Shown: positions 26,129 through 54,800, counted from the stretch's first letter. The stretch: 64,000 nt of DNA from Clostridia bacterium (GCA_017436675.1 JAFSCS010000042.1:18604-82603), one strand, 5' to 3'. Made by a program: numbers and translations. Notes: a model not told the origin generated them from the letters alone.

Positions 26129-26157
26129 TTGACAACGAGAGGTAAAACTGTTATAAT
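26129..26157 (+). promoter_or_regulatory. strong sigma-A-type promoter with extended -10
   Basis: TTGACA (26129-26134), 17-nt spacer ending in tgt, TATAAT (26152-26157). Confidence 0.7.
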
Positions 26158-26187
26158 TAAATAAACTTTTAAAAAGGAGTATAAAAA

Positions 26188-27609: not shown

Positions 27610-27627
27610 GTTTTAACTTGATAATAA

Positions 27628-27657
27628 AAGACTCTTCCTCGTGAAGAGTCTTTTTTT
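27628..27657 (+). terminator. rho-independent terminator
   Basis: The sequence is aagactcttc-ctcgt-gaagagtctt followed by ttttt. Confidence 0.85.
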
Positions 27658-27748
27658 GTGTAACGCAGTAATAAAATCAGCTTAATTGTTGACATAAACC
27701 CGAAATTTTGTTATACTAATATAGATATGGATACGATTGGAGAAAGCT

Positions 27749-28876
27749 ATGTACGAATTGGTCGCAACCTGTATGTTCGGGCTCGAGAAATTTCTCGGTG
27801 AAGAAATAGATGCACTCGGCTATGAGCGAATCGAAACGATAGACGGTCGAGTAACCTTCCGCGCACCCATCGAGGGCGTCGCATACAGTAATATATTCTT
27901 CCGCTATGCAGAGCGTGTGCTGATAAAGGTCGGCTCATTCCGTGCTACAACGTTCGAGGAGCTTTTCCAAGGAACGAAGGCTCTCGATTGGAGCGAGTGG
28001 ATCGATCGATACGATGCATTCCCCGTAAAAGGACATTCTATCCGCTCGAAGCTCTTTTCCGTCTCCGATTGCCAGAGTATCGTAAAAAAAGCGATAGTCG
28101 AGAACTTGAAGGAAGAATATGAGATCGACTATTTCGAAGAAACGGATATAAAATATCAGATCGAGTTTTTGATACTCAACGATAACGTAACAATGATGAT
28201 AGACACGAGCGGAGACGGACTCCATAAACGCGGCTACCGAACCCAAGCTAACCTCGCACCGTTGAAGGAAACGCTTGCCGCGGCAATAGTAAATCTGTCT
28301 CGCCCGCGAGAGAACGTCATCATCTGTGATCCAATGTGCGGAAGCGGAACACTATTGATCGAAGCCGCAATGATGTGCGCAGGCTTCGCTCCCGGACGAA
28401 ACCGCCGCTTTGCCGCAGAGCAGTATCCCCAGATCCCCGAATCCGCGTGGATCGAAGCAAGAGAAAAAGCAAAGTCGATGGAGACCGAGCCGAAAATGCA
28501 AATAATCGGCTATGACGTCGATCCGAATACCGTCGCGATCGCGATCGAGAACGCAAAAAGAGCAGGCGTCGAAAATTTCGTCCGCTTCTACGTCCGCGAT
28601 GCTCGTCAGTTCAAAAACCCCGTCGAGGGCGCAAGAGGAACAATAATAATGAATCCGCCGTACGGCGAACGTATGGGCGATAAAAGGGAAGTTCAGCAGC
28701 TTATCCGCGAGGTTGGAAGGACGTTCCAAAAAGAGATCCCCAATTGGCAAAAATATATCTTGTCGAGCGACGAGGAGTTTGAAAAATTCTTTGGAAGAAA
28801 GTCCGATAAAGCACGAAAGCTCTATAACGGAATGCTGAAATGCTACCTTTATCAGTATTTCAAAAGACAATATTGA
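27749..28876 (+). CDS. THUMP-domain class I SAM-dependent RNA methyltransferase (RlmL/YpsC-like)
   Basis: Start at MYELVATCMFGLE. Motifs: DPMCGSGTLLIEAA, IIGYDVD, MNPPYGERMG. Confidence 0.85.
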   Translation: MYELVATCMFGLEKFLGEEIDALGYERIETIDGRVTFRAPIEGVAYSNIFFRYAERVLIKVGSFRATTFEELFQGTKALDWSEWIDRYDAFPVKGHSIRSKLFSVSDCQSIVKKAIVENLKEEYEIDYFEETDIKYQIEFLILNDNVTMMIDTSGDGLHKRGYRTQANLAPLKETLAAAIVNLSRPRENVIICDPMCGSGTLLIEAAMMCAGFAPGRNRRFAAEQYPQIPESAWIEAREKAKSMETEPKMQIIGYDVDPNTVAIAIENAKRAGVENFVRFYVRDARQFKNPVEGARGTIIMNPPYGERMGDKREVQQLIREVGRTFQKEIPNWQKYILSSDEEFEKFFGRKSDKARKLYNGMLKCYLYQYFKRQY

Positions 28877-28893
28877 CTAAAACCGACAAAATT

Positions 28894-29034
28894 TTAGCAC
28901 TCAAAGTTCAAATTTGCTAAAATTGTGAAAATTTTTTTAAAAATTTGTTAAAAATCAAAAATACCTATTGACAATTACACTCAAAAGGATTAAAATAACC
29001 ACGTTGTTTGGCAATCCTCTCTTTTGAGTGCTAA
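28894..29034 (+). promoter_or_regulatory. groESL control region: degenerate CIRCE, sigma-A promoter, and a split CIRCE-like inverted repeat
   Basis: Degenerate CIRCE: TTAGCACTC-N9-ATTTGCTAA (28894-28920; consensus second arm is GAGTGCTAA). Promoter: TTGACA (28968-28973), 17-nt spacer, TAAAAT (28991-28996). The arms TTACACTCAAAAG (28975-28987) and CTTTTGAGTGCTAA (29021-29034) are inverted repeats separated by 33 nt. Confidence 0.55.
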
Positions 29035-29077
29035 ATCGATAAATTAAAACATTATATAAATTTCGGAGGAAAAGTAA

Positions 29078-31004
<1,927 letters not shown>

Positions 31005-31018
31005 TAAAATAACGTTCA

Positions 31019-31048
31019 AAACTCCCAATTTCAAATTGGGAGTTTTTT
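31019..31048 (+). terminator. rho-independent terminator of groESL
   Basis: The sequence is aaactcccaatt-tca-aattgggagttt followed by ttt. Confidence 0.85.
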
Positions 31049-31184
31049 ATTAAACCATATTGACAATAAATATATATATGTATTATAATAAAAATAGAGA
31101 GATTATCGAAAGGGGTGAGTCCAATGGTTATTATTATGATTTTGGCAAAACAACCATATAATAACTGAAAAGGAGAGATGATTT

Positions 31185-32072
31185 TTGAAAAAAACAATTT
31201 GTTTATTATTGATTCTTTTGTTGGCACTTGTCCCGATTCTTGTAAGTGCTGCAAATAACGATGATGTTGAAACTATAACATTAATCGAGTATAATTGTGT
31301 TACAAAAACTGAAAGAGAAGTAGTTGTTGAGGTAGATGAAGATGATTTGACTGCGCCAATGCCTGTATTGGGCGCTAATCCCAATTTAACGAGACAAATC
31401 ATTAATGGCAATAATAGAATTCAAGTTTACTTGGGAGCGTATAATACTTTTCCCTATAGTGCTATAGGTTTAATATCATGTGAAATAGAAAATGAAAAGT
31501 CATATTCTACTGGTTTTATTGTAGGTGAAAGAACTGTATTAACAAGCGTAGAAGCTGTTTATTCGCTTGAACCTAATATTAATATGGAGTGTGCATATTT
31601 TTTACCTCATGCAGATGCCGGCTCAACACATACTTATATAGAAAATAATGGTGTCAAGGTATATAAAACTTATGCTCCTGCTGACTACTTTACAAATCCG
31701 TGCGCCGCAAATGATTGGGCCATTTTGGTTTTAGAGGAGGATGTTGGTACAGATAATGGTATTATCCGACTTGATCACGTGGCACCGCATTATTCTGTAG
31801 AAGTTAAATTGATAGGTTATGACGATACAAGAGCAATGTATATATCACCCGGTAACCCCTCTTTATACACAACTAACGATGTTTTATACACTTGCGATAC
31901 TACTGCAGTTAATAGGGGGTCGCCTGTATTTTATATAACAGGTGGAGGCGCATTTTATTATGCATTTGCCATACACCATGGCGATTCAACTAATTATTCT
32001 AATATAGGTTGTAGAGTCACCCAATCACTTATTAACCGTGTTTATGAAATAGATGATGAATATTTACATTAA
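31185..32072 (+). CDS. secreted V8/glutamyl-endopeptidase-like (S1B fold) protein lacking catalytic His and Ser
   Basis: TTG start with RBS aaaggagag. Signal peptide MKKTICLLLILLLALVPILVSA. STGFIVGERTVLTSVEAVY aligns with V8 SGVVVGKDTLLTNKHVV. NDWAILVL aligns with GDLAIVKF. TTAVNRGSPVFY aligns with TTGGNSGSPVFN. Confidence 0.8.
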   Translation: MKKTICLLLILLLALVPILVSAANNDDVETITLIEYNCVTKTEREVVVEVDEDDLTAPMPVLGANPNLTRQIINGNNRIQVYLGAYNTFPYSAIGLISCEIENEKSYSTGFIVGERTVLTSVEAVYSLEPNINMECAYFLPHADAGSTHTYIENNGVKVYKTYAPADYFTNPCAANDWAILVLEEDVGTDNGIIRLDHVAPHYSVEVKLIGYDDTRAMYISPGNPSLYTTNDVLYTCDTTAVNRGSPVFYITGGGAFYYAFAIHHGDSTNYSNIGCRVTQSLINRVYEIDDEYLH

Positions 32073-32102
32073 TAGTATATTATAGAAAGGAAATATTTAG
32101 CA

Positions 32103-32462
32103 ATGAAAAAATTTATTTTATTTAGTCTTATCATCATGCTTTGCCTTCCTTTGCTTGTATCTTGCATTACAACGTTAGGCGCAGATGATAAATTCAATGA
32201 GCAAAAAAACGAAACAAGTGTCGTTGATAATGGCACCGCATCAGAAACTGAAACTGATGTTAAGAATACTGACTTAGCTGAAAAAGAAGCACCAACGGAT
32301 GAGGAACTAAAGAAGCGTGCTGAGGATCTGGGTGTAAAGATCATCGGTGAGAGCGAAAATTTCTTCTCTTATATAGAAAAAAGTGGAGATATGGAGTTGC
32401 TCGTTCAGATCTCAAAAGATCAGTTCGAAGCCTATTTAGATAAAATCGCTAACGAGCAATAA
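32103..32462 (+). CDS. small lipoprotein, unknown function
   Basis: The product starts MKKFILFSLIIMLCLPLLVSC (lipobox). It is an acidic 119-aa protein, AT-rich like the preceding gene, and starts 30 nt after it. Confidence 0.7.
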   Translation: MKKFILFSLIIMLCLPLLVSCITTLGADDKFNEQKNETSVVDNGTASETETDVKNTDLAEKEAPTDEELKKRAEDLGVKIIGESENFFSYIEKSGDMELLVQISKDQFEAYLDKIANEQ

Positions 32463-32481
32463 TATAAAATGCTGAGCTTAT

Positions 32482-32704
32482 GCGTAGTGCCCTTAAGGAC
32501 ACTACGCAGCGATATAAATCCCTAACGGGATTTGCGATATACGCTATCGCGTGCGATATATCTTCGATGCGATATGCCCTGCGGGGCGTGAAGGGGATTT
32601 ATATCATATCGCAACCGACCGCAAGGGAGGTTATATCGCTTTTGAGCGTAGCTTGCATGGCAAGCCGCGAAAATATATCGCATTAGCGAAAGCAAATATA
32701 TCGC
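32482..32704. repeat. convergent array of eight GCGATAT heptamers interleaved with short hairpins
   Basis: GCGATAT occurs at 32509, 32534, 32553 and 32569. ATATCGC occurs at 32606, 32633, 32675 and 32698. Hairpins: gcgtagtg...cactacgc (32482-32509), aaatccc-taac-gggattt, gccc-tgcg-gggc, gcttgc-atg-gcaagc. Confidence 0.8.
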
Positions 32705-32847
32705 CATAAAAAAGAGCTTCTGTGTCCACAGAAGCAGTGCTTGCAAAGAAAAGAGGACGAGGATCTGTAAAACACCTCGTCCTTTTCCTGTCGGTAGGTA
32801 ACGTACTTTATTAAATTTCAAAAACTGTCCTTTAGAGTACGCACCTT

Positions 32848-33195
32848 ATAAGCCGTCTTTTTTATGAGCGAAAGAAAGGGACGGCATCAGCCGTCCGCCT
32901 ATATTGCAGTTCCAATCAAGATGGAAGCATACCAAGATGGGTGGTTTTTTGTGCCACACAAAAGCAGTTCGGGTATTATGTTGCTTTTTGGGGGGCGCAC
33001 ACACTATTTGCCTTGCAAATAGGTTTGGATTTTGGCTTCGCCAAAAACGCCCTCCACCCGCGAACTTTTGAAAAAGTTCGATCAAAACTTTCAATTCCTT
33101 GGTGATGTAACTGTTTCAATACAATCAAGTCATCCCCAAAATTTAAGTTTTTTGGGGGAGTTTGAGGGGTACTTTTTCGAAAAAAAGTACCCCTC
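32848..33195 (+). repeat. mosaic intergenic repeat, family F
   Basis: Positions 33049-33195 align with 43985-44123 through cttttgaaaaa..t.ga..aaaactt..a.t.ccttggtgat.taa...tttc.atacaatcaagtcatccccaaaatt.aagttttttgggg.ag.tttgag. It ends in the hairpin gaggggtac...gtacccctc (33164-33195), next to the darA stop. Confidence 0.85.
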
Positions 33196-33204
33196 AATAA
33201 AAAC

Positions 33205-33531
33205 CTAAATCTTTTCAAAACCTTCAACGCCGAGCACGAAGATCGTCGCGCCGCCGACCTGCACCTCGTCACCGAGGCTGTTGTCGCACATCCCGCGTCC
33301 GAACGAGGAAGTCGAAGGGTTGAGCTGCTTTCTCGTGGGACAAAGATCACGTAAAATGGCTTTGATCCTCTCGACCTTGTCGTCTTCCGTGCCGATAAGA
33401 AGCGTCGTATTGCCGACCATCAAAAAGCCGCCCGTCGTCGAAAGCTTTGTGACGAAGAAACCTTCCTTGTTGAGTGCCGACGAAACGATCATACTGTCGT
33501 CGTTGTTTATAATTGCCAAAACCAATTTCAT
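33205..33531 (-). CDS. darA: cyclic-di-AMP receptor, P-II-like (DarA/PstA, YaaQ family)
   Basis: MKLVLAIINNDDS...FFVTKLSTTGGFLMVGNTTLLIGTEDDKV...VQVGGATIFVLGVEGFEKI is collinear with B. subtilis YaaQ as I recall it (MKL..A.V.D.DS...F.VTKLATTGGFL..GNTT..IG.ED..V...V.VGGATVFVL.V..F). Confidence 0.9.
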   Translation of the reverse strand: MKLVLAIINNDDSMIVSSALNKEGFFVTKLSTTGGFLMVGNTTLLIGTEDDKVERIKAILRDLCPTRKQLNPSTSSFGRGMCDNSLGDEVQVGGATIFVLGVEGFEKI

Positions 33532-33555
33532 ATCTTTTTTCTCCCTTAATATATT

Positions 33556-34050
33556 TTATAGCTCATATGAAAGTAACTTTTGTGAATGCTTGTCGAGTGC
33601 GCTCACGTCGGGTATCTCATATCGGTTGTCGTTCGCATCACGAACGAGAATACGTCCGTCATAAAGCGTCTTGATATCGCTGTGTCTGTTTTTGATCCTG
33701 ATAGTCCGCTCGCCGCGGTCAGTCATAATGGTCCATTTCAAAACACCGAATTTCTCAACGATATTGAGCACCGCCGTTATCCTCGGAATAAGATAATATT
33801 CCTCGAGACAATCCTCAATAGCCTTTTTTGAATCGGGCATCAACCTGTCGAGATCTCGAATGACCGCCTTTTCCTTGAGGTCGCTGTCGAGTAGTGTAAT
33901 ATAATTGCGAAGCCCCGAGAGCGGGAACAGCCTCCGCGGCTCAAGTCCCTCAAACCGCTCACCGCTGTAAAACTCAACGTCAACGAGACAAGTTCCGACC
34001 TTCGTGATGCGAACCTCGTCACCGTTAATATAATTTGCCATATCAACCAT
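33556..34050 (-). CDS. DUF1854-like protein (ABC-exporter-associated)
   Basis: 164 aa. The motifs PRRLFPLS, ITLLD and YLIPRI fit my recollection of DUF1854. It starts 7 nt after the ABC gene stop and ends 24 nt before darA. Confidence 0.65.
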   Translation of the reverse strand: MVDMANYINGDEVRITKVGTCLVDVEFYSGERFEGLEPRRLFPLSGLRNYITLLDSDLKEKAVIRDLDRLMPDSKKAIEDCLEEYYLIPRITAVLNIVEKFGVLKWTIMTDRGERTIRIKNRHSDIKTLYDGRILVRDANDNRYEIPDVSALDKHSQKLLSYEL

Positions 34051-34057
34051 CCTCCCC

Positions 34058-36307
34058 TCAAACGCCGGCTTCTATTCTCGCGCGATTCGTCTTCTCGGCG
34101 AGTGATTGGATCTCAATGAGAGTGTAGTATTTGCCCTTGAGCGCCATCAGCTCCTCGTGTGAGCCGAATTCGATGATCTTTCCTTGATCAACGACGACGA
34201 TCTTGTTCGCCTTCTTGAGTGTCGAAAGCCTGTGCGCGATCATAAGCGTCGTCCGTCCGGATATCAATCGTTCAATAGCCTCTTGAATGAGGTTTTCCGT
34301 CTCCGAGTCAACCGATGCGGTCGCCTCGTCGAAGATGAGTATCGACGGGTTTTTGAGAAGCGCACGTGCGATCGAAAGCCGCTGCTTCTCACCGCCCGAG
34401 AGTCCAACACCGCGTTCACCGAGCATCGAATCGTAGCCGTCGGGCTGACGTGCAATAAACTCGTGCGCGTTCGATGTTTCGGCAGCGTGAATGACTTGCT
34501 CAACGTGAGCGTTCGGAACACCGTATGCAATGTTGTTGAATATAGTGTCGGAGAACATAATAGGCTCTTGTTGAACGTAACCGATGCAAGCACGGTACGA
34601 TTCAAGGTCGAGATTTTTAATGTCTGTTCCGTCAACGAGTATCTCACCGTCATAGTTGTCATAGAAGCGCATCAAAAGATTGATCAGCGTCGACTTGCCC
34701 GAGCCCGTCGTACCAACGATACCGACGATGTCACCCGGCTCGATCGTGAGATTGATGTTGTTGAGCGTCTTCTTCGTCTTGTCGAACGAGAAGTTCACGT
34801 TTTTGAATTCTATCCTACCGTCGAGATGAGTGACCTTCTTCGCATCGGGAAGGTTGACCTCAGGCTCGGCGTCAATAATGTCGAGAATACGTTCGATCGC
34901 CGCAAGCGCACCTTGGTACGAGTCCGAAAGATACGCGAAAAAGTTGACGGGCGTGTAGAACATCGACGTGTATGAAATGAACGAAACGAGAAGACCGAGA
35001 GAAAGCATCTCTTCGTTCGTTGTGATCGCCCATCTACCGCCGATCGCCCAAATAAGAAGTGAACCGCACGTTACCGCAAACCCGATAATGCACGGGAAGA
35101 CCGTAGTGATACGAGCCGAAGCAGTATCGACCTTGTACCATTCCGCATTGTGCTTTTTAAATCTGTCGACCGCCCTGTCCTCACCGGCAAACGACTTTAC
35201 GATACGAATACAAGGTATCGTGTCCGTCAAAATGCCCGAAACCGACGCCCAACGCCGCCATATCTTCTTGTAAAACGGCGCGATCTTCCTCGAAAATATC
35301 TTCGCACCGACAACAACGAGCGGCACGGGAATGAGCGAAAGCAAGGTCAACCGCCAGTCCATCGCAAACATAATAACGATAATACCGATAAGCATAAAGA
35401 ATTGAACGACCACCTCTTGCGTGATCTTCAAAATGAATGCCTGAATGGTGTTGCTGTCACCGCTGATACGGTTGATCACCGAGCCCGTCGAGGTCTTGTC
35501 ATAAAACCTCATCGGGAGATGCTGCGCCTTTTCGTAAACGTCGTTACGAAGCTCCATAACGATCCTGTCACCGGATATCCTGAGCAGATATCCGCGAAGC
35601 GCACTGATAACGTGCTGAACTAAATAACAAAGAAATAACGTTAAAACGAGTGTCGCAAGCCCCTTGAGGTCTCTGTTCGGGATGACCGTGTCAACGATAG
35701 TCTTCGTCGCATACGGCGGGAATAAAGCAACAGCCGTCGTAATAATAGAAAGAATAAGACATACGAGAAGCCGCTTCCATTGAGGAGTAACGTATTTCAT
35801 CAGCTTCGCAGCGATCTTGCTCTTTGATTGACAATGAATACATTCCGCACCCTGACGAATTAGCGTGCGCCCGCATTTCGGACAAACGAGGTTCAGCTTG
35901 TCATAAGTAGCCTCAACGATCTCGAGCTGCTCCGAAAACGGCTCACCGAGCGCGACGTTCTTGATGAAAAGCGCCGCCATATCGCAAAGCGAGGCAACGG
36001 AATATGTAAATGAAAGTATCTCGTTTTTCTTCCCATCGCGGAGAAAAACAAGCCTTGCGTTTCCGTACATCCGCTTCACGAAGCAGTCCTCAATACCGTC
36101 ATAGACGTATTCTCGAAGAGCTTCATCACTGCAAACGAAAAATCGTTTCTCACAAAAAGCGATAACAGAGTCACCGTAGGTCGCCTCGGGCGTGAGGTCG
36201 GCAACAATGGCGAAAAGCAATTTCTCGTCTTTACCCAATGCCTCCAAAAGCTTCTTTTCAATAGCTTCGGGAAGCTCCCTGTTTTTCAAAAAATTATGAG
36301 TTTCCAT
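34058..36307 (-). CDS. type I ABC exporter (fused TMD-NBD, MsbA-like) with ~170-aa N-terminal extension containing a zinc ribbon
   Basis: Walker A GTTGSGKST, signature LSGGEKQR, Walker B ILIFDEATASVD. Six TM helices. The N-terminal extension has CPKCGRTL...CIHCQS. Minus-strand promoter: TTGACA-17-TATACT at about 36357-36385. Confidence 0.9.
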   Translation of the reverse strand: METHNFLKNRELPEAIEKKLLEALGKDEKLLFAIVADLTPEATYGDSVIAFCEKRFFVCSDEALREYVYDGIEDCFVKRMYGNARLVFLRDGKKNEILSFTYSVASLCDMAALFIKNVALGEPFSEQLEIVEATYDKLNLVCPKCGRTLIRQGAECIHCQSKSKIAAKLMKYVTPQWKRLLVCLILSIITTAVALFPPYATKTIVDTVIPNRDLKGLATLVLTLFLCYLVQHVISALRGYLLRISGDRIVMELRNDVYEKAQHLPMRFYDKTSTGSVINRISGDSNTIQAFILKITQEVVVQFFMLIGIIVIMFAMDWRLTLLSLIPVPLVVVGAKIFSRKIAPFYKKIWRRWASVSGILTDTIPCIRIVKSFAGEDRAVDRFKKHNAEWYKVDTASARITTVFPCIIGFAVTCGSLLIWAIGGRWAITTNEEMLSLGLLVSFISYTSMFYTPVNFFAYLSDSYQGALAAIERILDIIDAEPEVNLPDAKKVTHLDGRIEFKNVNFSFDKTKKTLNNINLTIEPGDIVGIVGTTGSGKSTLINLLMRFYDNYDGEILVDGTDIKNLDLESYRACIGYVQQEPIMFSDTIFNNIAYGVPNAHVEQVIHAAETSNAHEFIARQPDGYDSMLGERGVGLSGGEKQRLSIARALLKNPSILIFDEATASVDSETENLIQEAIERLISGRTTLMIAHRLSTLKKANKIVVVDQGKIIEFGSHEELMALKGKYYTLIEIQSLAEKTNRARIEAGV

Positions 36308-36638
36308 AACGCTGTACGTATCGCACTAAGCGACACTTCCTATGTTAATTTTTCAAGGGTAGTATAAAATCGAAAACCGAATTTGTCAAGATGATTTCGA
36401 AAAAACGGTATCGTATTTTTCAATACCGCTATGCAAAATTTATATATCAAAACACAGTTTGCGAACATAAATCCGCCCTTTAATATCAAAAATACATATC
36501 AAACACAAAAATATCTATATACTAACGCATATGTTGGCAATACAAATATCCACCTCGCCCCTCTTATGACGCTTTTGCTCACAATGAATAATCTCTCACA
36601 TTTACCGCTTCGCGCCAAATATGAACAGCTTGTTCATA

Positions 36639-36867
36639 TTTTGTTCATAAATTGTTTACATTTGGGATCGTTAAAACCTATTGACATTTTGCGGTAGGGG
36701 GTGGTATAATGTAATCGAAGAGTAAAGGGTGCTCTTCTTAAAGGAAAAACACGCACTCGGTAAGTACGGTGCAGTAATATTTTTCGACTTATAGCCGTAC
36801 TTTCTTTTTTGAGTGACATCAAACCGCGTTTGCGGAGAAAGGGCGGTTTTTTGCTGTTTTAAAGGAA
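36639..36867 (+). promoter_or_regulatory. promoter plus structured-leader cassette, copy B
   Basis: It has the same 26-nt block as copy A. Promoter: TTGACA (36681-36686), 18-nt spacer with TGg, TATAAT (36705-36710). Stems: gaagagta/tgctcttc, and aagtacgg/ccgtactt followed by a U-run (36762-36810). An extra hairpin aaaccgc...gcggtttttt lies at 36821-36852, with a competing ccgc-gttt-gcgg. Confidence 0.7.
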
Positions 36868-39552
36868 ATGAAACTTTTACGACAAAAATCACAAGTCAAC
36901 AATTCAAATCGAATCATCGCTTTGATCTTGTTCTTTGCGATGGTCTTAAGTCTCACAGCCTCATTTTCGGCTTTCGGTATCGAGGAACAGCCCGCCTTGA
37001 TAAGTCCGCAATTCGTCGGTACTCCCGGTATTGACGATATACCCTTCTGTATCGACGAGGACGTTATAACTGACGCTGAACACACAGTCAGGTTGCGTTA
37101 TCTCGAAACCGAAGATAACGTTGCCGCATTCTCCAACCCTGACGGTAGCGCCACGATGTACTATTTTTCAAATCCTATCAAATACACCGATATTTACGGC
37201 AACACGGTCGATATCGACAATACCGTGGAAACCTTTGGTGAATTGACAGATGAATATAAGTTCAAAACAAAGTCAGCCCCTGCTACAACTTATCTCCCTG
37301 CAACCATCGGTATGGGTGAGGACGTAAAGGTTGAGCATAATGGTTTTTCGGTACAGATAATACCGATGTCAGACAGATTTGCTGCGGGTACTACTGTAGC
37401 AAGTGAATTGAAAACAGGAAAAGACTCAGCCGTGCTTTACAGCAACGTATTTGGTACGGGCAGATCACTCAAATACACAACACTATACAACGGTGTTAAA
37501 GAGGACATTATACTTAACAGCTACGTAGCGAACGCTAACAGCTTCAACTTTATCGTAAAGACGAACGGACTTGAGCTTGCGGAGATAGACGGAAGATACG
37601 TATTCAGAGACACTTTAGGCATACCGATGTTTGAATTTTCGCCGATATTCGTATATGATTCTGCGGAAGTACCCAACTCAACAGGCGGCACATACACTGT
37701 GGAAGAACTAAAACCTAACGACATATATGCATTAACTCTCACAGTTGACGAGACTTGGTTAAGCGGTGCTACTTACCCTGTTACCATTGATCCGACGGTG
37801 ACATATAATACTGACAGCGGGATAGAAGATGCATATAGCAGAGCAACTACTTACGATTTGACCGGATATGAAACCCAATTAATTATTGGCGAAATCTCCA
37901 ATTCAACACCACTTTCAAGAACATATTTGCGTTTTCCTAATTTGGTTAATACATTAGAGATGGACTCAGATATTATAGAATCAGCGAAATTACATTTAAC
38001 TATTTCGTCAAATACTATGGAAACAAGTCCAAGCACACTCTCAATACATCATATTACTTCCGGTTGGGTTGAATACCATTGGTCAGGATCTTATCCGTAT
38101 AGTTCTTATGATCAATCTACAGCCGCATCAAAAGACTATTCTATTTCGGGAACCGGTTCTAAAGAATTAAACATAACACCATTTGTTAGACGTTTTGTTG
38201 ACAACGAATATGTTGATGCTAACGGCTTGTTAATCAAGTTAAAAAATGAAAGTTTATCTAATACAACAAATGAAAGTATTGTTTTCTATTCTTCAGAGGC
38301 TACCGACACTTCAAAACGTCCGTATATTATAGTAACATTATCTTCATTTTCAATGCCCAATGGAAAACAACAAGGAATTAGAGACGATCGCTTTTATTGG
38401 GTTAGTAGCGACGATCAATTTTTAACAAAATCAGATAGCAGACCTGACATAATATATTCAGGTCAAGTAAGAGACTACACTTTATTAAAGCAACGCTTTT
38501 TATTTACGTTCGACGAAGAGAAAGGAAAATACAGAATTTCAACTGAAAATGCTCCAACTACATATTTGACTGTTAGCGGAAGCTATTTAGTGGGTTCAAG
38601 TCTATCTTCTTCTAACAATCAATTGTGGCACATTGGTTGTACTAATAATGGCTATTATTTTATTATTAGTGCCGGTGACACTTCAAAATCATTAGCGCTT
38701 AATAATTCAAGTGCTTGCCTTACAACAGGAACAATTACATCTTGGACGTTTGAAAAATGTCCGACGTTTTATGGGCAACGCGTTAACGTAATGAATGGAT
38801 TTGAGTATTGGGATTCAACAAATTTAGATAATCTTTTCTTTCCCTCATATTCAAACACAAGAAAATTTTTCACTTACACACCGAATGATGCTACAAATAT
38901 AAATGAAAGCCCTTCGGCAAATGACAATGACATAATGACAGAAGGATGTGTTATGTGTTCTATTGCCATGGTATTGGATAACTTAGGCGCTAAAAGCAGT
39001 GTATCTAAATATGATATACGTAATGGCTCAACAGGATTTATGATTCCTGATCCTTTTACATGCACTTTAGCAAATTCATTATATTTTTCAAATTCACCGT
39101 CAACTATTATCTACGATAATATTCAGGCAAGATATGAATGTTCATTTTCAACGTTGCCAGTAAAATTTGACGCAAGCGTATTTACGGGTTTTAATTGTAG
39201 TTTTACGACAGTTTCTATTTCGGGATCAAATGTTCAAAAAGCAATAGCATTAAAAAATGCACTATCTGATCATTCTGAAGGAATTCTTGTAAGGGTTGGC
39301 TATAACGCTGACAATTTAAGAGGACGACATACGATAGTAATTACAAAATATATCGGCCCTGATAATATCCCTGCGTCAATTGATGACACCACTCTACATT
39401 CTTATTTCATTGTATATGATCCTGCTAGCAGAACTCAAGCACAAGGCAGTGGCTGCCAATGGAACTTATGTAAAACATATATTGGTTCAAGTAATTCCCC
39501 AAGTCAAAATCTATCCAACGCAATATATTATCAGACTATTGTTATGAACTGA
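36868..39552 (+). CDS. secreted 894-aa multidomain protein: DNRLRE/CBM96-like beta-sandwich, possible beta-trefoil, C-terminal C39-like papain-fold cysteine peptidase
   Basis: Signal peptide RIIALILFFAMVLSLTASFSAFG. TYLRFPNL...IESAKLHLTIS fits the DNRLRE-type pattern. NQLWHIG and TSWTFEKC look like QxW-type repeats. Peptidase-like motifs are EGCVMCSIAMVLDNLG (Cys codons 38947 and 38956), GRHTIVITKY (His codon 39328) and YFIVYDPAS (Asp codon 39418). Confidence 0.7.
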   Translation: MKLLRQKSQVNNSNRIIALILFFAMVLSLTASFSAFGIEEQPALISPQFVGTPGIDDIPFCIDEDVITDAEHTVRLRYLETEDNVAAFSNPDGSATMYYFSNPIKYTDIYGNTVDIDNTVETFGELTDEYKFKTKSAPATTYLPATIGMGEDVKVEHNGFSVQIIPMSDRFAAGTTVASELKTGKDSAVLYSNVFGTGRSLKYTTLYNGVKEDIILNSYVANANSFNFIVKTNGLELAEIDGRYVFRDTLGIPMFEFSPIFVYDSAEVPNSTGGTYTVEELKPNDIYALTLTVDETWLSGATYPVTIDPTVTYNTDSGIEDAYSRATTYDLTGYETQLIIGEISNSTPLSRTYLRFPNLVNTLEMDSDIIESAKLHLTISSNTMETSPSTLSIHHITSGWVEYHWSGSYPYSSYDQSTAASKDYSISGTGSKELNITPFVRRFVDNEYVDANGLLIKLKNESLSNTTNESIVFYSSEATDTSKRPYIIVTLSSFSMPNGKQQGIRDDRFYWVSSDDQFLTKSDSRPDIIYSGQVRDYTLLKQRFLFTFDEEKGKYRISTENAPTTYLTVSGSYLVGSSLSSSNNQLWHIGCTNNGYYFIISAGDTSKSLALNNSSACLTTGTITSWTFEKCPTFYGQRVNVMNGFEYWDSTNLDNLFFPSYSNTRKFFTYTPNDATNINESPSANDNDIMTEGCVMCSIAMVLDNLGAKSSVSKYDIRNGSTGFMIPDPFTCTLANSLYFSNSPSTIIYDNIQARYECSFSTLPVKFDASVFTGFNCSFTTVSISGSNVQKAIALKNALSDHSEGILVRVGYNADNLRGRHTIVITKYIGPDNIPASIDDTTLHSYFIVYDPASRTQAQGSGCQWNLCKTYIGSSNSPSQNLSNAIYYQTIVMN

Positions 39553-39566
39553 AAGAGGGTACAATT

Positions 39567-41006
39567 ATGAAAAAAATCGCTATGATACTTATTATCTTTT
39601 TGTCCATTATATCAATTCAAAGCAGTGCATTAAGCAATGACAGTCATAATGAAAACATCCAAATTGTTGAAGATAAAGCCGTTAATAGTGTTAAGGAGAT
39701 ATTAACTAAATATAATGAATACGTTTTATTAAGTAACAGATGCACCGGGTCATTAGAGGTTGACACTTCCGTTCTTTATCCTGCGGAAAGGGGCAAATAT
39801 TCCGAGCTTGTTTTTTATTGGGATGAGCTTGTTGAAAAGTATCCCGACATAGTTAAAATGGAGAACAATTCACTTAACTATGATGAATATGACTTAAAAA
39901 ACTTAATTCCTCCTCGATACAAGGTTATTGATTCAAAATATAAAAGTATTGATGACATTCGCAATCTATTAGATAGTATTTTTACAGAAAAATTAGTTCA
40001 CCTACGTTTAGCAGCAGATATCATCAATACATCGGATGTACCATATGAAGGGACATACGATTGGACATTCTACAGCAAATTTGAAAAAACAGGAAAGTTT
40101 TATGATGTTGACGGAGAGCTTTATACTACTTGGGAGGATCAAAATTTTAAAATATTGACGCTTAGATATATAGATATTGAGAGTATCAATGTTTTAGAGG
40201 TTGAGAACGGATATGTTGTTTCTGCAAGAGGTTCGTCCGAATATCGCGACGGAAAAGTGTCTAAACCTGATTCAGATGTTAAATTTTATTTTGAGATAGT
40301 CGGTGATGAATTAAGGATCTCTGCTATTGATTTCAAACGAGATCATATAAAAGATAACGAAACTCAAATAGGCGATATTTACGATCAAATAGACGCACTT
40401 TATGAGCTTCAAAACGATGTTATATTTAATAGTTCGGACTATGATCCAAGCACGATGTATATTATGGCAACCCGAAATTCCTATTTTTCAAACCCGGATC
40501 ACCTGAAAAAGAATACTTCGGTATATAAATTTGAACACGAAAGGTTTATGAATTTAGCTGACTTATATGATTGGGCTTATGATGTTTATTCTCCACTAAA
40601 AGCAGAATTGTTTTATAGTATCTATTTTGACAGTGGCTATTATTCTCCAAGCGGACAGACTCTTAGTTCAGGGCGATTCAAAAACAACGAATATGGCCTA
40701 TTTGTTGAAGCTTTAGCAAAAATTCACCACTACGGTGAAATAATCACTTTTAACAAACATTTTGATTTTGACGACTTTGAAATGATCGAGACTGATAACA
40801 GGGTGTTTTTTTACAAAAAAGATGATAGTTTTTGGGATGTAATCTGTTTTGAAAAATCATATTCATTTGACAACAACGAAATTGAACTTCGACTCCATTC
40901 AAATGTTCAGTGTTACGAAGGCTTTGAAGAAGGATTTTTCGATATTAATGAAGCTGAAATGAAAACTTCCTCTGACTTTTATTTATACAACGAATTTTAT
41001 GAGTAG
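39567..41006 (+). CDS. secreted protein, paralog 1 of a three-member family
   Basis: SPase I-type signal MKKIAMILIIFLSIISIQSSA. Shared motifs: TKYNEYVLLSNRCTG, RYIDIESINVLEVENGYVVSARGSSEYRDGKVSKPDSDVKF, ADLYDWAYDVY. Confidence 0.8.
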   Translation: MKKIAMILIIFLSIISIQSSALSNDSHNENIQIVEDKAVNSVKEILTKYNEYVLLSNRCTGSLEVDTSVLYPAERGKYSELVFYWDELVEKYPDIVKMENNSLNYDEYDLKNLIPPRYKVIDSKYKSIDDIRNLLDSIFTEKLVHLRLAADIINTSDVPYEGTYDWTFYSKFEKTGKFYDVDGELYTTWEDQNFKILTLRYIDIESINVLEVENGYVVSARGSSEYRDGKVSKPDSDVKFYFEIVGDELRISAIDFKRDHIKDNETQIGDIYDQIDALYELQNDVIFNSSDYDPSTMYIMATRNSYFSNPDHLKKNTSVYKFEHERFMNLADLYDWAYDVYSPLKAELFYSIYFDSGYYSPSGQTLSSGRFKNNEYGLFVEALAKIHHYGEIITFNKHFDFDDFEMIETDNRVFFYKKDDSFWDVICFEKSYSFDNNEIELRLHSNVQCYEGFEEGFFDINEAEMKTSSDFYLYNEFYE

Positions 41007-41051
41007 TATTTTAACAAATACGGCTTTACACCAATAAGGAGGTATAAAAAT

Positions 41052-42407
41052 ATGAAACATTTATCATTTATTCTACTGATTGTGCTGACACTTGGAATTT
41101 TGGTTTCTTGTATGCCTAATGACACTTCTTCGGGTGGAGAATTATCCGAAGGCGTATCAACCGATATTTCCGTTGACGAATCAACTACTGTTGAGGTTAC
41201 GGACGAGGCAGTTATCGCCGAGATAAAGGCGCTTTTGGAGAAGTATAACGAATACGTACTTATCGTGAATATGTGCGAGGGGGCAATTGACGCAGACAAA
41301 GATGCAAAGCTCGACGAATATTCATTTAGTATTTTTGATTGGTTTGAGTTTAATGTGGAAGAAGAGATCTACGGACCTACGCCAAGTACTGATGCGGGTG
41401 ACGACTGTGTCAAGATTACCGACGCACGTTTTGATGACCAAAACGATTTCAAGGATATGCTTTATGAAATATACACTAAAGAAAACGCTGAGATGTTCTA
41501 TGCTTCGGAATTTGCATATTCATATCCGTATGGCGATTTTGGTGCTTTTTACAGAGGTTTTTCCAACTTTCCGCTTTTTGTCACTATTAATGAAGAGTTA
41601 TATTCGACACAAGAATTTAAAGACTATGCTGTTTTGACAAAAAGATATATTGATCTTTCTACTGTATTGATTTCTGAAAGTCAGCGAGGATATATTGTTA
41701 CAGCAAGAGGTTCTTCGATATTCAAAGATGGTACTGTTCAAGCGGCTGATTCCGATGTGAAGATACTGATAGTCAATGAAAATGAAAGCTTTAAAATTGA
41801 ATACATGGAAGCAATCAGCGATCACAATAAGGTACTTCAATCTTTAGGCAAAACCGACGAAGAAAAGCAACAAGCTATTATTGACGATATAGATTCAATG
41901 CTGAAACTGATCAACACAAGTGTTGAGGCAGATGTTAGCTTCGATGATATACCTCAGGGGATGCCGTTATATGGATATGAAAAATATTACAAGGCAGAAA
42001 CTGATAAACTCAAGAATATGGCGGACCTGTATGACTGGGCATATAGAATCTTTTTAGGCGAAAAAGCCAATGAGGAAAACATCAACGTATCGCACCCTGA
42101 ATATATTTTTCATCAGCGTATATTCCACGGAAACTATGATTCTTCCGGTATTTTCGGGCATCCTGCATTTTACAACGATGAATCGGGATTATATTCCATT
42201 AACAAAAAAGAGATTATAGAAGAATTACATAATCTCAAATTTACACCCATAGAAACAGGCTATATTGGAAATAATGATCATTCTGATTTTTACTTTTTTG
42301 ATAAGGTAGATATGTTCGGTGACGGTGAATACACCTTTAAGATAAGCGGTGTAAAAACAAAGTACGACCTCACCGACGAGGAAAAGGCACTTTTGGGGAT
42401 CAATTAA
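41052..42407 (+). CDS. lipoprotein, paralog 2
   Basis: Lipobox LGILVSC and an S/D/E linker. Shared motifs: EKYNEYVLIVNMCEG, RYIDLSTVLISESQRGYIVTARGSSIFKDGTVQAADSDVKI, ADLYDWAYRIF. The C-terminus is LTDEEKALLGIN. Confidence 0.82.
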   Translation: MKHLSFILLIVLTLGILVSCMPNDTSSGGELSEGVSTDISVDESTTVEVTDEAVIAEIKALLEKYNEYVLIVNMCEGAIDADKDAKLDEYSFSIFDWFEFNVEEEIYGPTPSTDAGDDCVKITDARFDDQNDFKDMLYEIYTKENAEMFYASEFAYSYPYGDFGAFYRGFSNFPLFVTINEELYSTQEFKDYAVLTKRYIDLSTVLISESQRGYIVTARGSSIFKDGTVQAADSDVKILIVNENESFKIEYMEAISDHNKVLQSLGKTDEEKQQAIIDDIDSMLKLINTSVEADVSFDDIPQGMPLYGYEKYYKAETDKLKNMADLYDWAYRIFLGEKANEENINVSHPEYIFHQRIFHGNYDSSGIFGHPAFYNDESGLYSINKKEIIEELHNLKFTPIETGYIGNNDHSDFYFFDKVDMFGDGEYTFKISGVKTKYDLTDEEKALLGIN

Positions 42408-42437
42408 AGATAATTGAACTAAAAAGGAGGTACGAAA

Positions 42438-43856
42438 ATGAAAAAACTTATAATTTTATTGCTATTATTTTCATTAACACTTGGGTTATTAGCATCTTGT
42501 ACGCCGAATGACACTTCTTCGGTTGGAGAGATTTCTAAAGATATATCAAACGAAATTTCCACCGATATGTCAGATGAAGTTTCGACAGAAGAATCCAACA
42601 CTGTTGTCGAAGTCACTGACGAGGCAGTTATTGCCGAGATAAAGGCGCTTTTGGAGAAGTATAACGAATACGTTCTTATCGTAAATATGTGCGAGGGATC
42701 GTTGAAGTATGAGGGTGAAGCTATTGACTACACCATTTCATACGAGCAATGGTTCAACATAGATATTACAAAAGAGAACTATGATGCTCTTCCAAGTCCA
42801 CCTATTCTTGATTTCAACGGTTACAAAATAGTTGATGAGCGTTTTTCTGATATCGATTCGTTTCAAAAGCTTCTTGAGGGAATTTATATTTCGGAATTAG
42901 CTGAGATGTATTACAGATCAGAGTTTGCGTTTTGTTGGGAAGATAAGGATTCACCCTTTGACCACAAATACGATTCGTTTTCAAGATATCCGCGATTCAA
43001 TTTCTTTGATGGTTATAATTATTCCACTTTGAAGTTTACCGACAATGCTACCTTGAGAAAACGTTACATTGATATTGACAGTATTGCCGTTTTTGAAGGC
43101 TCAAAGGGATACGTTGTAACGGCAAGAGGCTCTTCTTTGTTCAAGGACGGAAAGGTGCAAGATGCTGATTCTGACGTTAAATTTCTTATTACGGACGAAA
43201 ACGGGGCTTTGAAAATTTCAGAATTTGAGGCGAAGCGTGATCACATTACTGACGAAAAAACTTCATCCGCTCAAGAGAAGCTTGAGAATTTCTTCAAAGA
43301 ATTCGGCTCGATCACATCGTTGATACGCGAAAGCGATGAAGTAACATTGAATACCGATAGTGATCCAAGCTATCTTTATTATTTCTATATCAGAGATGAC
43401 AACATTGAAGCTTACTTAACAGAAGATGATATTTTCAAGAGCATTGTTGACGTTTATGACTGGGTAAATAGTTTTTATTACACCACAAGCGCAGAAAATT
43501 ATTTCACAAGGTCTGTTTTTGGCACCTTCGATCCTGCGGGGTGTGTGTTTCCAACATTCATTTACTCAACAGCTTTTCCCGATAAGCTTTATTTAAATAA
43601 AGCTGCCTTGAATTCCGGATCCCCGCTTGGTCAAGCACATAACATTGACGAAGACTTTATTGATGGATTTGAGTTCAAAAAAACAGAAAGCGGCTATCTT
43701 GCATATTATTTTGACGGAGAATATTATCTTTTATTCTACCTTGATGAAATCGACTTGTTTGGAGACGGGGATTATTCTTTAAGAATAAAAAATTCGAGGG
43801 AAACAAAAGAAAAATACCTCACCGACGAGGAAAAGGCACTTTTGGGGATAGAATAA
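42438..43856 (+). CDS. lipoprotein, paralog 3
   Basis: Lipobox LGLLASC and the linker ISKDISNEISTDMSDEVSTEES. Shared motifs: EKYNEYVLIVNMCEG, RYIDIDSIAVFEGSKGYVVTARGSSLFKDGKVQDADSDVKF, VDVYDWVNSFY. The C-terminus is LTDEEKALLGIE. Confidence 0.82.
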   Translation: MKKLIILLLLFSLTLGLLASCTPNDTSSVGEISKDISNEISTDMSDEVSTEESNTVVEVTDEAVIAEIKALLEKYNEYVLIVNMCEGSLKYEGEAIDYTISYEQWFNIDITKENYDALPSPPILDFNGYKIVDERFSDIDSFQKLLEGIYISELAEMYYRSEFAFCWEDKDSPFDHKYDSFSRYPRFNFFDGYNYSTLKFTDNATLRKRYIDIDSIAVFEGSKGYVVTARGSSLFKDGKVQDADSDVKFLITDENGALKISEFEAKRDHITDEKTSSAQEKLENFFKEFGSITSLIRESDEVTLNTDSDPSYLYYFYIRDDNIEAYLTEDDIFKSIVDVYDWVNSFYYTTSAENYFTRSVFGTFDPAGCVFPTFIYSTAFPDKLYLNKAALNSGSPLGQAHNIDEDFIDGFEFKKTESGYLAYYFDGEYYLLFYLDEIDLFGDGDYSLRIKNSRETKEKYLTDEEKALLGIE

Positions 43857-43880: not shown

Positions 43881-44123
43881 AAAAAGACGGCAATTTATTT
43901 GCCGCCTTTTTTAATTCGTGAAATTTGGTCACCATAAGGCGACGGCTTGGCTGTTATATCCAAGGGGCTATGCGCCCCTTGACCCGCACAATTTTTTGAA
44001 AAAATTGAGTAAAACTTTAAAATCCTTGGTGATATAATAGTTTCGATACAATCAAGTCATCCCCAAAATTAAAGTTTTTTGGGGAGAGTTTGAGAACCCC
44101 TTTTTTTCAAAAAAGGGGTTCTC
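43881..44123 (+). repeat. mosaic intergenic repeat, family F
   Basis: It starts with the terminator-like aaaaagacggcaa-ttta-tttgccgcctttttt. It ends with ccccaaaattaaagttttttgggg and gagaacccc-tttttttcaaaaaa-ggggttctc (44092-44123), next to the mutS2 stop. It aligns with 32848-33195 and inverted 20763-20925. Confidence 0.85.
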
Positions 44124-51824: not shown

Positions 51825-54800
51825 ATGTTTTTGGAACATAAAAAGGCATTCAAAGCGATAACGAAACGATATAAAGAAAACGATAACGAAATAATAAACG
51901 AAAACTACTACCTCCTCCAAACGTCCTTCGAGCATCTCGAGAGAGCAAAGCCTCTGAAAAGATACTACCACTTGATCGACCGTGTCGGATACTTCGTCGA
52001 AAACAATAATTTCGACTTCACAAAAGAAAAATATGTCGAATATATGCTCTCGCTTGGGAAAACGATCGAATTGGATAAGTATATCCTCGACGTGATGCCC
52101 TCGCTTATCGTCGCATATCTGCTCATATCAATAACAAAAACCGACGAAAATATCCCGCTTGCCGTCGATATGCTTCGTAAAATAACGAAAACCGACTTCT
52201 CGTCCCTTGAGCCGAGGTTATTCGTCTCCGAGCGCTTTCTCGAAAACGAGGAGAAATATGAATATATGACTCCCGAAACGAAGTCGAGCTATCGCGCCGC
52301 CTTCTCAAAATTTGCAAAAGACCATCATTTGACACATAAAGAAGTCGAGAAAAAGCTGCTTTCTTCAAATAAGACGATCGGCGAGTTGCTTTTCCCCGAA
52401 AAAAACAGTCGGACGTTCTTTGTGTTGAGCACGATACTGTTTTTGCCGTGTATGACGCTCCTCCTGAAATTTATCGGTGGTTTTTCCTTGATACTTGCAC
52501 TTCCGCTTTGGATCGCCGTCGGCGAGATAAGTGACCTGTTTATCTCGAAATATTCAAAAAAACAGCCAACGCTCCGACTTGCCGCCGATAAATGCTCGTC
52601 GATCGGAAAAACACTCGTCGTAACGACCTCGCTCGTCGGCGATAACGATAAGCTTTTTGAAAACGTGGAGCTGTTTTACCTCGCAAATAAGACCGCCCCC
52701 GCATATTTCGGACTGTTGCTCGACCACCCCGACAGTCAAACGCAGGAGGACGAAAAAAGCAAAGAGCATACCGAAAAAGCAAAAAAGAAAATAACGGAGC
52801 TAAACGAAAAATACGGCGAGAGATTTTTCCTTTTTCTCCGTCACCGAGTAAAAAACGACGACGGAAAATATTACGGCTGGGAACGAAAAAGAGGCGCGGT
52901 CACCGAGCTTGTCCGTTTTATCCACGGTGAAAAAACGACCATCTCTCATTTTGTCGGAAGCATCGACGACCTCAAAAAAGTGAAATACCTGTTGACTCTC
53001 GATAGCGACACACTGCTGTCGCTTGAAAGCGTGAACGAGATAGTCGGCACAATGGCACATCCGCGCTATCGTCCGATAATAAAAAACGGGAAGGTCGTAA
53101 AAGGCTATGGAATAATGCAGCCTAAGATGGTACCAACGATCGAAAGCTCAACAAAAACGCCCTTCTCGTCAATGCTGAGCTTCGGTGGCACGGATATCTA
53201 TGAAAGTGCCTCCTACGACCGATATATGCACACCTACGGTGAAGGTGCGTTTTGCGGAAAGGGTATGATCGACGTCGAGCTGTTCTATAAGCTTGTCGAT
53301 CTTCCCGAAGGCTTCGTGCTCAGCCACGATCTGCCCGAGGGCTCAATATTGCGAACACGTTCGCTAAACGACGTGACCTTGTCCGACAGTACCCCGAAAA
53401 ATATGCTTTCCCATTCGACTCGAGCTGCTCGTTGGTGTCGCGGTGATATCCAAAACCTCTGGCTTTGGAATAAGGTCAGCGGTGTCGGGAAGCTAATGAT
53501 GCTTTCGAACGTCGCAAGACTTTTGTGCCCAATACTCGTGACCCTTACGATCATTCTTTCTCTTGTCCACCCATCACCACTCTCCGTCACGCTTTCGTCG
53601 CTGTCGATACTCATCCTACCACAGCTCGTTTCAATACTTTTTACACCGTCTTATTTCGTTCTGCTCTTTAGAAGACGTACCTTTTCAAAAATAACGAAAA
53701 GCTCAATAAAGCAGCTCTGCTTGATCGCTCATAAGGTGCTGTCGCTCAGCTACGTTGCCTACGTCAATATGATCTCGATCCTCCGCTCGCTTGTGCGAAT
53801 GACGATAACGAAGAAAAAGAGACTCGAATGGATAACCGCATCGGAGATAGATAAGAGCGGAAAGGGAGGCTTTTGGTATTTCGTCCAACGAATGCTCTTT
53901 TCGTGCGGTGTAGGCGCAGCCCTCTTCCTGATGGCGAACGACCTTTCGACAAAGCTTCTCGGCATATCTTGGTTTTTGTATCCGCTCGTATCCTACCTCA
54001 GCTCACTTCCCGCAAAACCGCGTCTACCTCAGCGTGACAACTCGGAGCTCAAGGAGGAAATAGCACGAATGTATCGATTTTTTGCCGACAACGTCACCGA
54101 AAAGACCTTCTATCTCCCGCCGGATAACGTATCCTTCTACCCGATGACGCGAGTCGCGATGCGTACCTCGCCGACGAATATCGGACTCTATCTCCTCTCG
54201 ACCGTCTCTGCCGCGTCATTATCGCTGATAAGCGAGGACGAATTGATCACCCGCATCGAAAATACACTTACCACCTTGGAGCACCTCGAAAAATGGAACG
54301 GTCACCTCTATAATTGGTATGACCTCACCGATCTCCATCGCTTGAACGGCTACGTCTCGACCGTCGATTCGGGAAACCTGATAACCTCGCTCGTCGCCGT
54401 GGGCGAAGCTCTCCGTCAGCTCGGACAGATCGACCTTGCCGAGCGTTGCGGCGCCCTCACAAAAGCCGATATGCAAAGCCTCTATAACACAGAACGTGAC
54501 CTTTTTTTCCTCGGCTACGACGTCAATAGCGAAAAACACGGAGATATCTGCTACGATCTCTATATGAGCGAGGCGAGAACGACGAGCTACTTCGCTTGCG
54601 CAACGGGGTCCGTCCCGAAAAAGCATTGGAGAATGCTTTCACGAGTTCCGATCGAAAAGAATGGATATATCGGTATGGCGAGCTGGACGGGTACTGCGTT
54701 CGAATATTTTATGCCTACTCTGTTGCTCCCACACCCCGAAAATACGTTTCTCGAGGAATCACTCATCTTCGCCTACCACCGCCAACGCTCGTATACGCGC

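Follow-up and report, generated by a model that had tools for sequence, protein, structure and literature searches.

A strain-variable secreted protein with a probable papain-like hydrolase domain and its downstream family of exported paralogs in a Clostridia bacterium

Within a 64,000-nt stretch of Clostridia bacterium DNA (GCA_017436675.1, JAFSCS010000042.1:18604-82603; the whole stretch is called the window in the following), positions 36868-43856 carry four tandem genes, the first encoding a modular secreted protein with a C-terminal Cys-His-Asp domain and the other three encoding exported proteins related to each other. The locus raises the question of whether the three paralogs are functional partners of the first gene product or stand next to it for other reasons. 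Gene order and strain comparison indicate that the pairing is probably functional. As to its nature, a strain-variable secreted hydrolase with cognate surface protector paralogs is the reading we favor, tentatively and as a possibility. The four genes are:

36868-39552, + strand: gene 1 (g1), 894 aa, MBQ6906691.1, NCBI title 'MAG: DNRLRE domain-containing protein [Clostridia bacterium]'
39567-41006, + strand: gene 2 (g2), 479-aa exported paralog with a signal of the signal peptidase I (SPase I) type, subtype A, hypothetical protein at NCBI
41052-42407, + strand: gene 3 (g3), 451-aa lipoprotein paralog with LVSC lipobox and acidic S/T-rich linker, subtype B
42438-43856, + strand: gene 4 (g4), 472-aa lipoprotein paralog with LASC lipobox, subtype B

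The co-oriented open reading frames (ORFs) were found at exactly the coordinates given in an earlier annotation made from the DNA alone (the sequence-only reading), with gaps of 14, 45, and 30 nt between g1 and g2, g2 and g3, and g3 and g4, respectively. At NCBI, g2 to g4 are the hypothetical proteins IJN75_06700, 06705, and 06710. The four-gene locus, flanked by mutS2 and a bPH-ABC transporter gene, was seen on six independent metagenome contigs (ENA and Logan) and is therefore no assembly artifact. The block had been described as AT-rich from spot counts of 22/60 and 33/60 GC, which were reproduced exactly; over its full length the module has a GC content of 0.363 vs. 0.453 for the 64-kb window, with the lowest values in g1 codons 323-894 (0.342) and in g2 (0.326).

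The pairing was assessed from gene neighborhoods and from a second allele of the same species. At 4/4 known loci with a g1-type peptidase gene, a member of the paralog family follows 14-32 nt downstream, each time of a different subtype; the subtypes differ in tails and signals. The number of four known g1-type homologs is a lower bound, as the word-indexed protein search missed P0028 (the cluster representative of g1) and the L007 protein. The first paralog after the peptidase gene is:

Window: type A (g2)
L007: type B (g3 ortholog)
L001: type C (405 aa)
L011: type D (406 aa)

The L007 locus, from the same species, shows 97% nucleotide identity to window positions 24213-31008 and to g3 and 96% to the promoter and codons 1-322 of g1. 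Across window positions 37833-41087, no L007 nucleotide match was found, which defines the following feature:

37833-41087, + strand: strain-variable cassette, g1 codons 323-894 plus the whole of g2, no L007 nucleotide match

On the protein level, identity between the g1 products of the window and L007 is 98% over residues 25-322 and 41% over residues 323-894, with 32% for the DNRLRE domain, 53% for the trefoil, and 41% for the Cys domain, while the domain types are unchanged. As L007 has a divergent C-terminal part of g1 and no g2 between flanks of 96-97% identity, the C-terminal part of g1 and g2 are one variable, very AT-rich cassette. A functional coupling is thus probable, because adjacency is kept across homologs of about 40% identity and because the C-terminal part of g1 and g2 vary jointly. 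For the same reasons, i.e. a paralog directly downstream of every known g1-type hydrolase gene and the joint difference of the variable hydrolase part and g2, we read the paralogs as candidate dedicated partners.

The g1 product comprises the following parts:

36868-36975, + strand: Sec signal peptide, about residues 1-36 (MKLLRQK..., hydrophobic core, SFSA/FG), read from the sequence
36976-37833, + strand: N-terminal domain, residues ~37-322, strain-conserved
37828-38337, + strand: DNRLRE (CBM96/disaggregatase-related) beta-sandwich, residues 321-490, NF033679
38491-38748, + strand: probable ricin-B-type beta-trefoil lectin, residues ~542-627, sub-threshold hidden Markov model (HMM) matches
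38749-39549, + strand: C-terminal Cys-His-Asp domain, residues 628-894, triad conserved among homologs
38947-38949, 39328-39330, and 39418-39420, + strand: triad codons for Cys694, His821, and Asp851

All g1 motifs quoted in the sequence-only reading were found, namely TYLRFPNL at residue 352, SAKLHL at 372, NQLWHIG at 584, and SWTFEKC at 625, as well as EGCVMCS at 692, GRHTIVIT at 819, and YFIVYDPAS at 846 in the C-terminal domain. For the latter domain, the order and context of the Cys, His, and Asp motifs had been compared to C39-type peptidases. Homologs of this domain were found in P0001, from the metagenome-assembled genome (MAG) GCA_017935935.1, in the 879-aa L007 protein (GCA_054276635.1), and in a 59-aa fragment at the edge of L011. 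Cys694, His821, and Asp851 have the residue order Cys, His, Asp of clan CA and are invariant across the three full sequences at 40-43% identity, and the flanking motifs GC..(I/V)AM.LD, IPDPFTCTLAN, H.IVIT, and FIVYDPA are invariant too; the L011 fragment retains the Asp (FVVYDP). This order of the three residues agrees with the sequence-only reading. The only Pfam family matching the domain in any homolog is PF13529 (Peptidase_C39_2), found in 2/3 homologs with 14.3 bits (E=0.06) in P0001 and 11.9 bits (E=0.34) in L007 at a cut-off of 24, both covering the Cys motif. No HMM match to PF03412, the bacteriocin-processing Peptidase C39, was obtained for the domain of g1 or its homologs. In a Foldseek search against PDB with a poor model of the domain, 11 of the 15 top matches were papain-fold Cys/His enzymes, including CtaG, prostaphopain B, IdeC, AvrPphB, and SpvD, none of them significant (E>=0.07, template modeling (TM) score <=0.25). 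Scans with one or two short-peptide patterns of the domain, which were not exhaustive, found none in GTDB genomes, JGI metagenomes, or IMG/VR, and tblastn of the C-terminal domains against phages and plasmids gave noise only.

From these sequence features, the C-terminal domain is probably a clan-CA (papain-like) hydrolase closest to Peptidase_C39_2 and not a canonical exporter-fused C39 domain. That it is free-standing and secreted, as had been proposed, agrees with its position at the C-terminus of a protein with a signal peptide. The designation 'C39-like' is tentative: two homologs match PF13529 below the threshold, and the window protein itself matches no C39 model. Since Pfam C39_2 is counted among the catalytic domains of endolysins of phages of Gram-positive bacteria (PMC8223927; bioRxiv 10.64898/2026.04.25.720813), a cell-wall target is plausible by analogy.

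In front of the putative hydrolase, the DNRLRE beta-sandwich suspected earlier was identified above the curated cut-off (NF033679, 65.9 bits vs. cut-off 34, E=4.5e-18, profile positions 2-164 of 164), and the same region matches Pfam Disaggr_repeat with E=2.8e-5. In Streptococcus suis, DNRLRE lies in the N-terminal fragment of the polymorphic toxin WapA, for which the authors predict cell-wall binding (PMC12704120). Residues ~542-627 are probably a ricin-type trefoil, a suggestion of the sequence-only reading that gained likelihood: PF14200 (RicinB_lectin_2) scored 23.0 bits, below its cut-off of 25.6, PF05588 matched too, weaker matches were obtained to HA-17 and ThreeFoil (3pg0 E=0.043), and the L007 homolog matches the same families (PF14200 17.6, HA-17 19.3). 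Among the QxW motifs there is one clear copy, QLW at 585-587. For the N-terminal domain, the Pfam scan returned no family; tblastn matched an ORF in the human-faecal contig MT835475.1 (30.7% identity, E=1e-22) and, more weakly, Bacillus phage proteins annotated as 'YD repeat' or 'virion structural protein'. In MT835475.1, the ORF shares with g1 the N-terminal domain, DNRLRE, and a ricin-like scaffold, but has a different C-terminus. The contig is labelled 'UNVERIFIED: Bacteriophage sp.', yet appears bacterial, with homologs of lysS and greA (L010 5983-8679); the g1-like ORF there has a signal peptide and a Cys-rich C-terminus, is split at 7437/7438, and is followed by two small ORFs. Regarding the start of g1, other gene callers choose M25, which would leave no signal peptide.

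The proteins encoded by g2 to g4 had been called mutual paralogs, which is supported by pairwise identities of 29-42% (29-30% between g2 and g3 or g4, 42% between g3 and g4). A 98-nt segment at the 5' end of g4 is 91% identical to the corresponding segment of g3. The predicted export signals were also confirmed by reading the sequence, i.e. an SPase I-type signal in g2 and lipoboxes in g3 (LVSC) and g4 (LASC). No matches were found in Pfam, NCBIfam, PADLOC, or PDB sequences, PHROGs returned nothing meaningful, and Pfam scans of all 18 paralogs singly revealed no recurrent family, so that the paralogs stay outside named families, as had been stated. An exhaustive HMMER search with a three-sequence profile, which covered the paralog family only, found 17 representatives among 1.84 billion proteins. 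A scan of 185,579 GTDB species genomes found the family in 1 of them, and scans of JGI metagenomes and IMG/VR found none. On these sequence comparisons, g2 to g4 belong to an undescribed, lineage-restricted family of predicted exported proteins. One database member, P0014, is fused to the C-terminal part of ribosomal protein S7 (Pfam E=1.6e-15), a chimera probably due to an artifact of assembly or gene calling.

The AlphaFold model of g3, based on 16 sequences, had a predicted local distance difference test (pLDDT) value of 75.6 and a predicted TM score of 0.80, and both halves have the same order of helix and long strands. Aligning the N-terminal with the C-terminal half of the family by hhalign gave 95.5% probability and E=1.6e-8. 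Because of this match between the halves and the same secondary-structure order in the model, each paralog is a tandem duplication of an alpha+beta domain of ~200 aa. Neither PDB nor BFVD yielded a significant Foldseek match to the g3 model. The PDB list is weak and rich in NTF2-like proteins (E>=0.2, TM<=0.36) and includes latexin, and the BFVD search gave no NTF2-like matches. Only one match was below E=0.2, a phage baseplate chain with E=2.3e-3, which is not credible at a root-mean-square deviation of 23.5 Å. A relation to IseA/YoeB-type inhibitors, for which a comparison had been recommended earlier, received no support: there was no Pfam, NCBIfam, or PDB sequence match, and IseA is not in the top 50 Foldseek PDB matches listed. 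In many family members, the middle varies, whereas the 5' end is nearly identical and the tail reads DLTDEEKALLGI[EN]. The tail (e.g. 43815-43853) loosely resembles the double-glycine leader pattern, but lies at the extreme C-terminus.

Outside the coding regions, the module is framed by the following elements:

36681-36710, + strand: sigma-70-type promoter TTGACA-18-TATAAT with extended -10 (TG), 12/12 consensus positions
36711-36867, + strand: 5' leader predicted to form a hairpin at its 5' end (GAAGAG...CUCUUC) and a stem (GUACGG...CCGUAC) with a U-run behind it
43888-43914, + strand: intrinsic terminator CGGCAA...TTGCCG followed by a T-run, hairpin 43888-43904
43909-44084, no strand assigned: intergenic repeat element with sequence copies within the window

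Both the dedicated promoter/leader upstream of g1 and the terminator-containing repeat behind the module, as described in the sequence-only reading, are present. The promoter is conserved at five other loci. Copies of the leader with 80-96% identity lie in front of the paralog arrays of L009, L002, and L005 and of g1 in L007, and promoter and leader of ~150 nt recur at window positions 20941-21170. The predicted fold of the leader has -41.3 kcal/mol (z=-1.9); its alignment contains no covarying pairs, and an Rfam scan of window and leader gave no family match.

According to the explanation we favor, one promoter and a conserved leader would drive an operon of four exported proteins. The g1 product would combine an N-terminal domain and a DNRLRE scaffold, as at the N-termini of WapA/YD-repeat proteins, with a ricin-type lectin and a Cys hydrolase. 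Its lectin-type domains may bind a glycan surface, e.g. cell wall or mucus, where the C-terminal domain (Cys694/His821/Asp851) would cleave a peptide or amide bond. The paralogs, one soluble and two lipid-anchored, would be dedicated partners of the hydrolase, acting as surface binders or as inhibitors which protect the producer in an immunity-like manner; for partners that are exported like the hydrolase itself, binding or protection is the simplest role. Arrays without a peptidase gene would be orphan copies. A more specific version, in which gut Clostridia have a lineage-restricted antagonism system with a lectin-guided papain-like effector that is exchanged together with its cognate, exported NTF2/cystatin-like double-domain protector, supplemented by orphan protector arrays under one promoter/leader, is unlikely in all its parts taken together.

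Several observations weigh against the hydrolase/protector explanation. With regard to the hydrolase, the g1 protein of the window had no match to any peptidase model, even at E<=10, and the PF13529 scores of the homologs fall below the threshold. PDB sequence and profile searches with the C-terminal domain found nothing, and there is no conserved Gln upstream of the Cys. Modeling of the papain fold had been proposed as a check; with a two-sequence alignment, AlphaFold gave an unusable model (pLDDT 34.6), so the fold could not be modeled. With regard to the paralogs, their large size (~450 aa) and strongly conserved motifs (RYID, ARGSS, DSDVK) do not fit easily, and they show no similarity to known inhibitor or immunity proteins in Pfam, PADLOC, PDB sequence, and Foldseek searches. 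The gene-order sample consists of four loci only, and at least four paralog arrays (L002, L009, L005, and L008) have no adjacent peptidase gene. Also, promoter and leader precede arrays without a peptidase gene as well as the lipoprotein gene at 21171, which is unrelated. Because the same promoter and leader drive both, the adjacency of g1 and paralogs may reflect a shared regulon or island instead of a partnership.

The co-occurrence with hydrolases expected by the sequence-only reading was found from one side: paralogs stand beside every known peptidase gene (4/4), and the peptidase-less arrays bring the family close to one that occurs mostly without an adjacent hydrolase. These arrays are located as follows:

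L002: array between rimM and lepA
L009 and L005: arrays after rpsI
L008: singleton

The alternative that survives best starts from these arrays. The paralogs could be an independent, fast-recombining variable family of surface or secreted proteins with a function of their own, such as ligand binding or surface variation, and g1 would be adjacent via shared AT-rich islands with the same promoter/leader. This is somewhat unlikely, but hardly less likely than the favored explanation. It accounts for the peptidase-less arrays at the rimM-lepA and rpsI-DUF4127 sites and the L008 singleton, and for the one leader in front of these arrays and of the unrelated lipoprotein gene (21171-22805). Conserved gene ends, variable middles, and g2 copies of 97-99% identity in the peptidase-less arrays of L002 and L009 indicate a shuffling of cassettes; L009 and L007 belong to the same MAG, and the L009 array carries a g2 of 98.7% identity. 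Judging by the invariant polar motifs of the first domain, the paralogs may have a binding site of their own. What speaks for the partnership instead is that each of the four peptidase homologs known so far keeps a family member directly downstream at a mutual identity of only 40-44%, and that g2 co-varies with the variable part of the peptidase.

Rather improbable is a second alternative, overlapping with the other readings, in which the C-terminal domain is no active peptidase and g1, under diversifying selection, encodes a surface or adhesin-like protein that binds glycans. No peptidase model reaches its threshold, the structural model failed, and the strain differences in g1 extend over three domains and not the tip alone. 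Against it, Cys, His, and Asp are invariant at ~40% identity together with their flanking motifs (GC..IAM.LD, H.IVIT, FIVYDPA), and the sole family match in the region is a C39-like model covering the Cys motif. Most doubtful is a role of the paralogs as peptidase substrates, cargo, or adaptors, e.g. with g1 maturing or shedding lipoproteins by cutting acidic linkers or tails: C39-type enzymes are processing peptidases, gene order is conserved, the lipoprotein paralogs have long S/T/D/E-rich linkers after the lipobox, and many paralogs share the conserved C-terminal tail, but g2 and the other paralogs which come first after the peptidase have neither linker nor tail, with 1-2 residues between tail and C-terminus, cleavage would remove almost nothing, and a single peptidase gene stands against many arrays.

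Two further candidates were rejected. A prophage origin of the module does not agree with its core-gene flanks (groEL, mutS2, recO, and era), and there were no viral-contig matches. A link of g1 to the upstream ABC transporter was dismissed as well, since the transporter has no C39 domain and is missing from the L007 allele.

Some side observations concern the arrays and repeats. In L009, the third array paralog is broken into two ORFs with 163 and 292 aa (6530-7927), a frameshift or pseudogene, and L002 contains a 135-aa remnant of a paralog C-terminus (13012-13419). A DUF4127 lipoprotein gene follows directly after arrays on the opposite strand (L001 3636-5345, L009 7971-9620); at this site a peptidase gene precedes the array in L001, but not in L009. 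The second promoter/leader copy of the window (~80% identity, core GACTTATATCCGTACTTTCTTTTT at 21094-21117) precedes the unrelated lipoprotein gene at 21171-22805, located in another AT-rich patch, whose product of 544 aa combines a VSC lipobox with a long acidic S/D/E linker and matched no Pfam family. The repeat positions 43990-44084 match 33063-33157 at 84%, and 43909-43953 are inverted relative to 20858-20902. Copies of the repeat, 84-91% identical and one of them inverted, flank AT-rich lipoprotein islands and also occur after the L002 array (L002 12801-13166).

Upstream of the module, the window carries a 5.7-kb insertion (31008-36699) missing from L007, where groEL is directly followed by the g1 promoter. 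It contains an ORF with weak trypsin-like matches (31185-32072), a c-di-AMP receptor-like gene, a DUF1854 gene (33556-34050), and the bPH-ABC transporter gene (34058-36307). Elsewhere in the window, inverted repeats of 49-76 nt with 84-88% complementarity connect the intergenic regions 13776-13891, 16779-17351, and 20569-20644, and a very long ORF of 2236 aa is located on the + strand at 51825-58535.

If the pairing is functional, the paralogs would represent a new protein family binding or inhibiting an extracellular clan-CA hydrolase, and g1 a new architecture of WapA-like N-terminal scaffold, lectin, and C39-like head without Rhs repeats, both from uncultured gut or rumen Clostridia. The module would then add to the small set of secreted enzyme/protector systems of Gram-positive bacteria and illustrate, at an actual locus, how strains exchange cassettes. 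Should the pairing be incidental, what remains is an orphan lipoprotein family that is duplicated internally, recombines, and shares a conserved leader, a clean example but one for a narrow audience.

Compared to known systems, the C-terminal domain of g1 resembles Peptidase_C39_2 (PF13529) in the order Cys...His...Asp, in GC-x5-AM-x-L at the Cys, and in H-x-[IV]V[IV]T and [IV]YDP at the His and Asp. Like PF13529 proteins, it is free-standing without fusion to an ABC exporter and part of a modular secreted protein with carbohydrate-binding domains. It differs in that similarity is below the Pfam threshold in the homologs and absent in the window protein, in the long Cys-His spacing (127 residues), in the missing conserved upstream Gln, and in its C-terminal position on a DNRLRE/ricin scaffold. 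With canonical exporter C39 domains (PF03412), it shares the order of catalytic residues, but there is no HMM match and no exporter fusion, and it would be extracellular instead of cytoplasmic; the neighboring ABC protein (34058-36307) has bPH and not C39 at its N-terminus, and its gene is absent from the L007 allele.

As in WapA/Rhs polymorphic toxins, g1 starts with a Sec signal, an N-terminal domain, and DNRLRE, its N-terminus is 98% and the remainder 41% conserved between strains, the exported proteins directly downstream differ with each variant, and additional 'orphan' copies exist elsewhere. Unlike these toxins, g1 has no Rhs/YD repeats, its variable part keeps the domain families without a toxin-type swap, and the downstream proteins are ~450 aa long, exported, and mutually homologous. 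Staphopain/staphostatin, SpeB/Spi, and IseA (YoeB) offer a further parallel, a secreted predicted papain-fold enzyme with a candidate partner directly downstream. Their inhibitors, however, are small (about 100-180 aa), staphostatins are cytoplasmic beta-barrels, and the sequence and fold searches with the paralogs gave no match to any of them. With NTF2-like/cystatin-like alpha+beta proteins such as Imm-NTF2, which are predicted immunity proteins, and two-domain latexin, the paralogs lack a significant structural match and Pfam matches, but have in common the predicted order of helix and long curved strands and the two-domain duplication.

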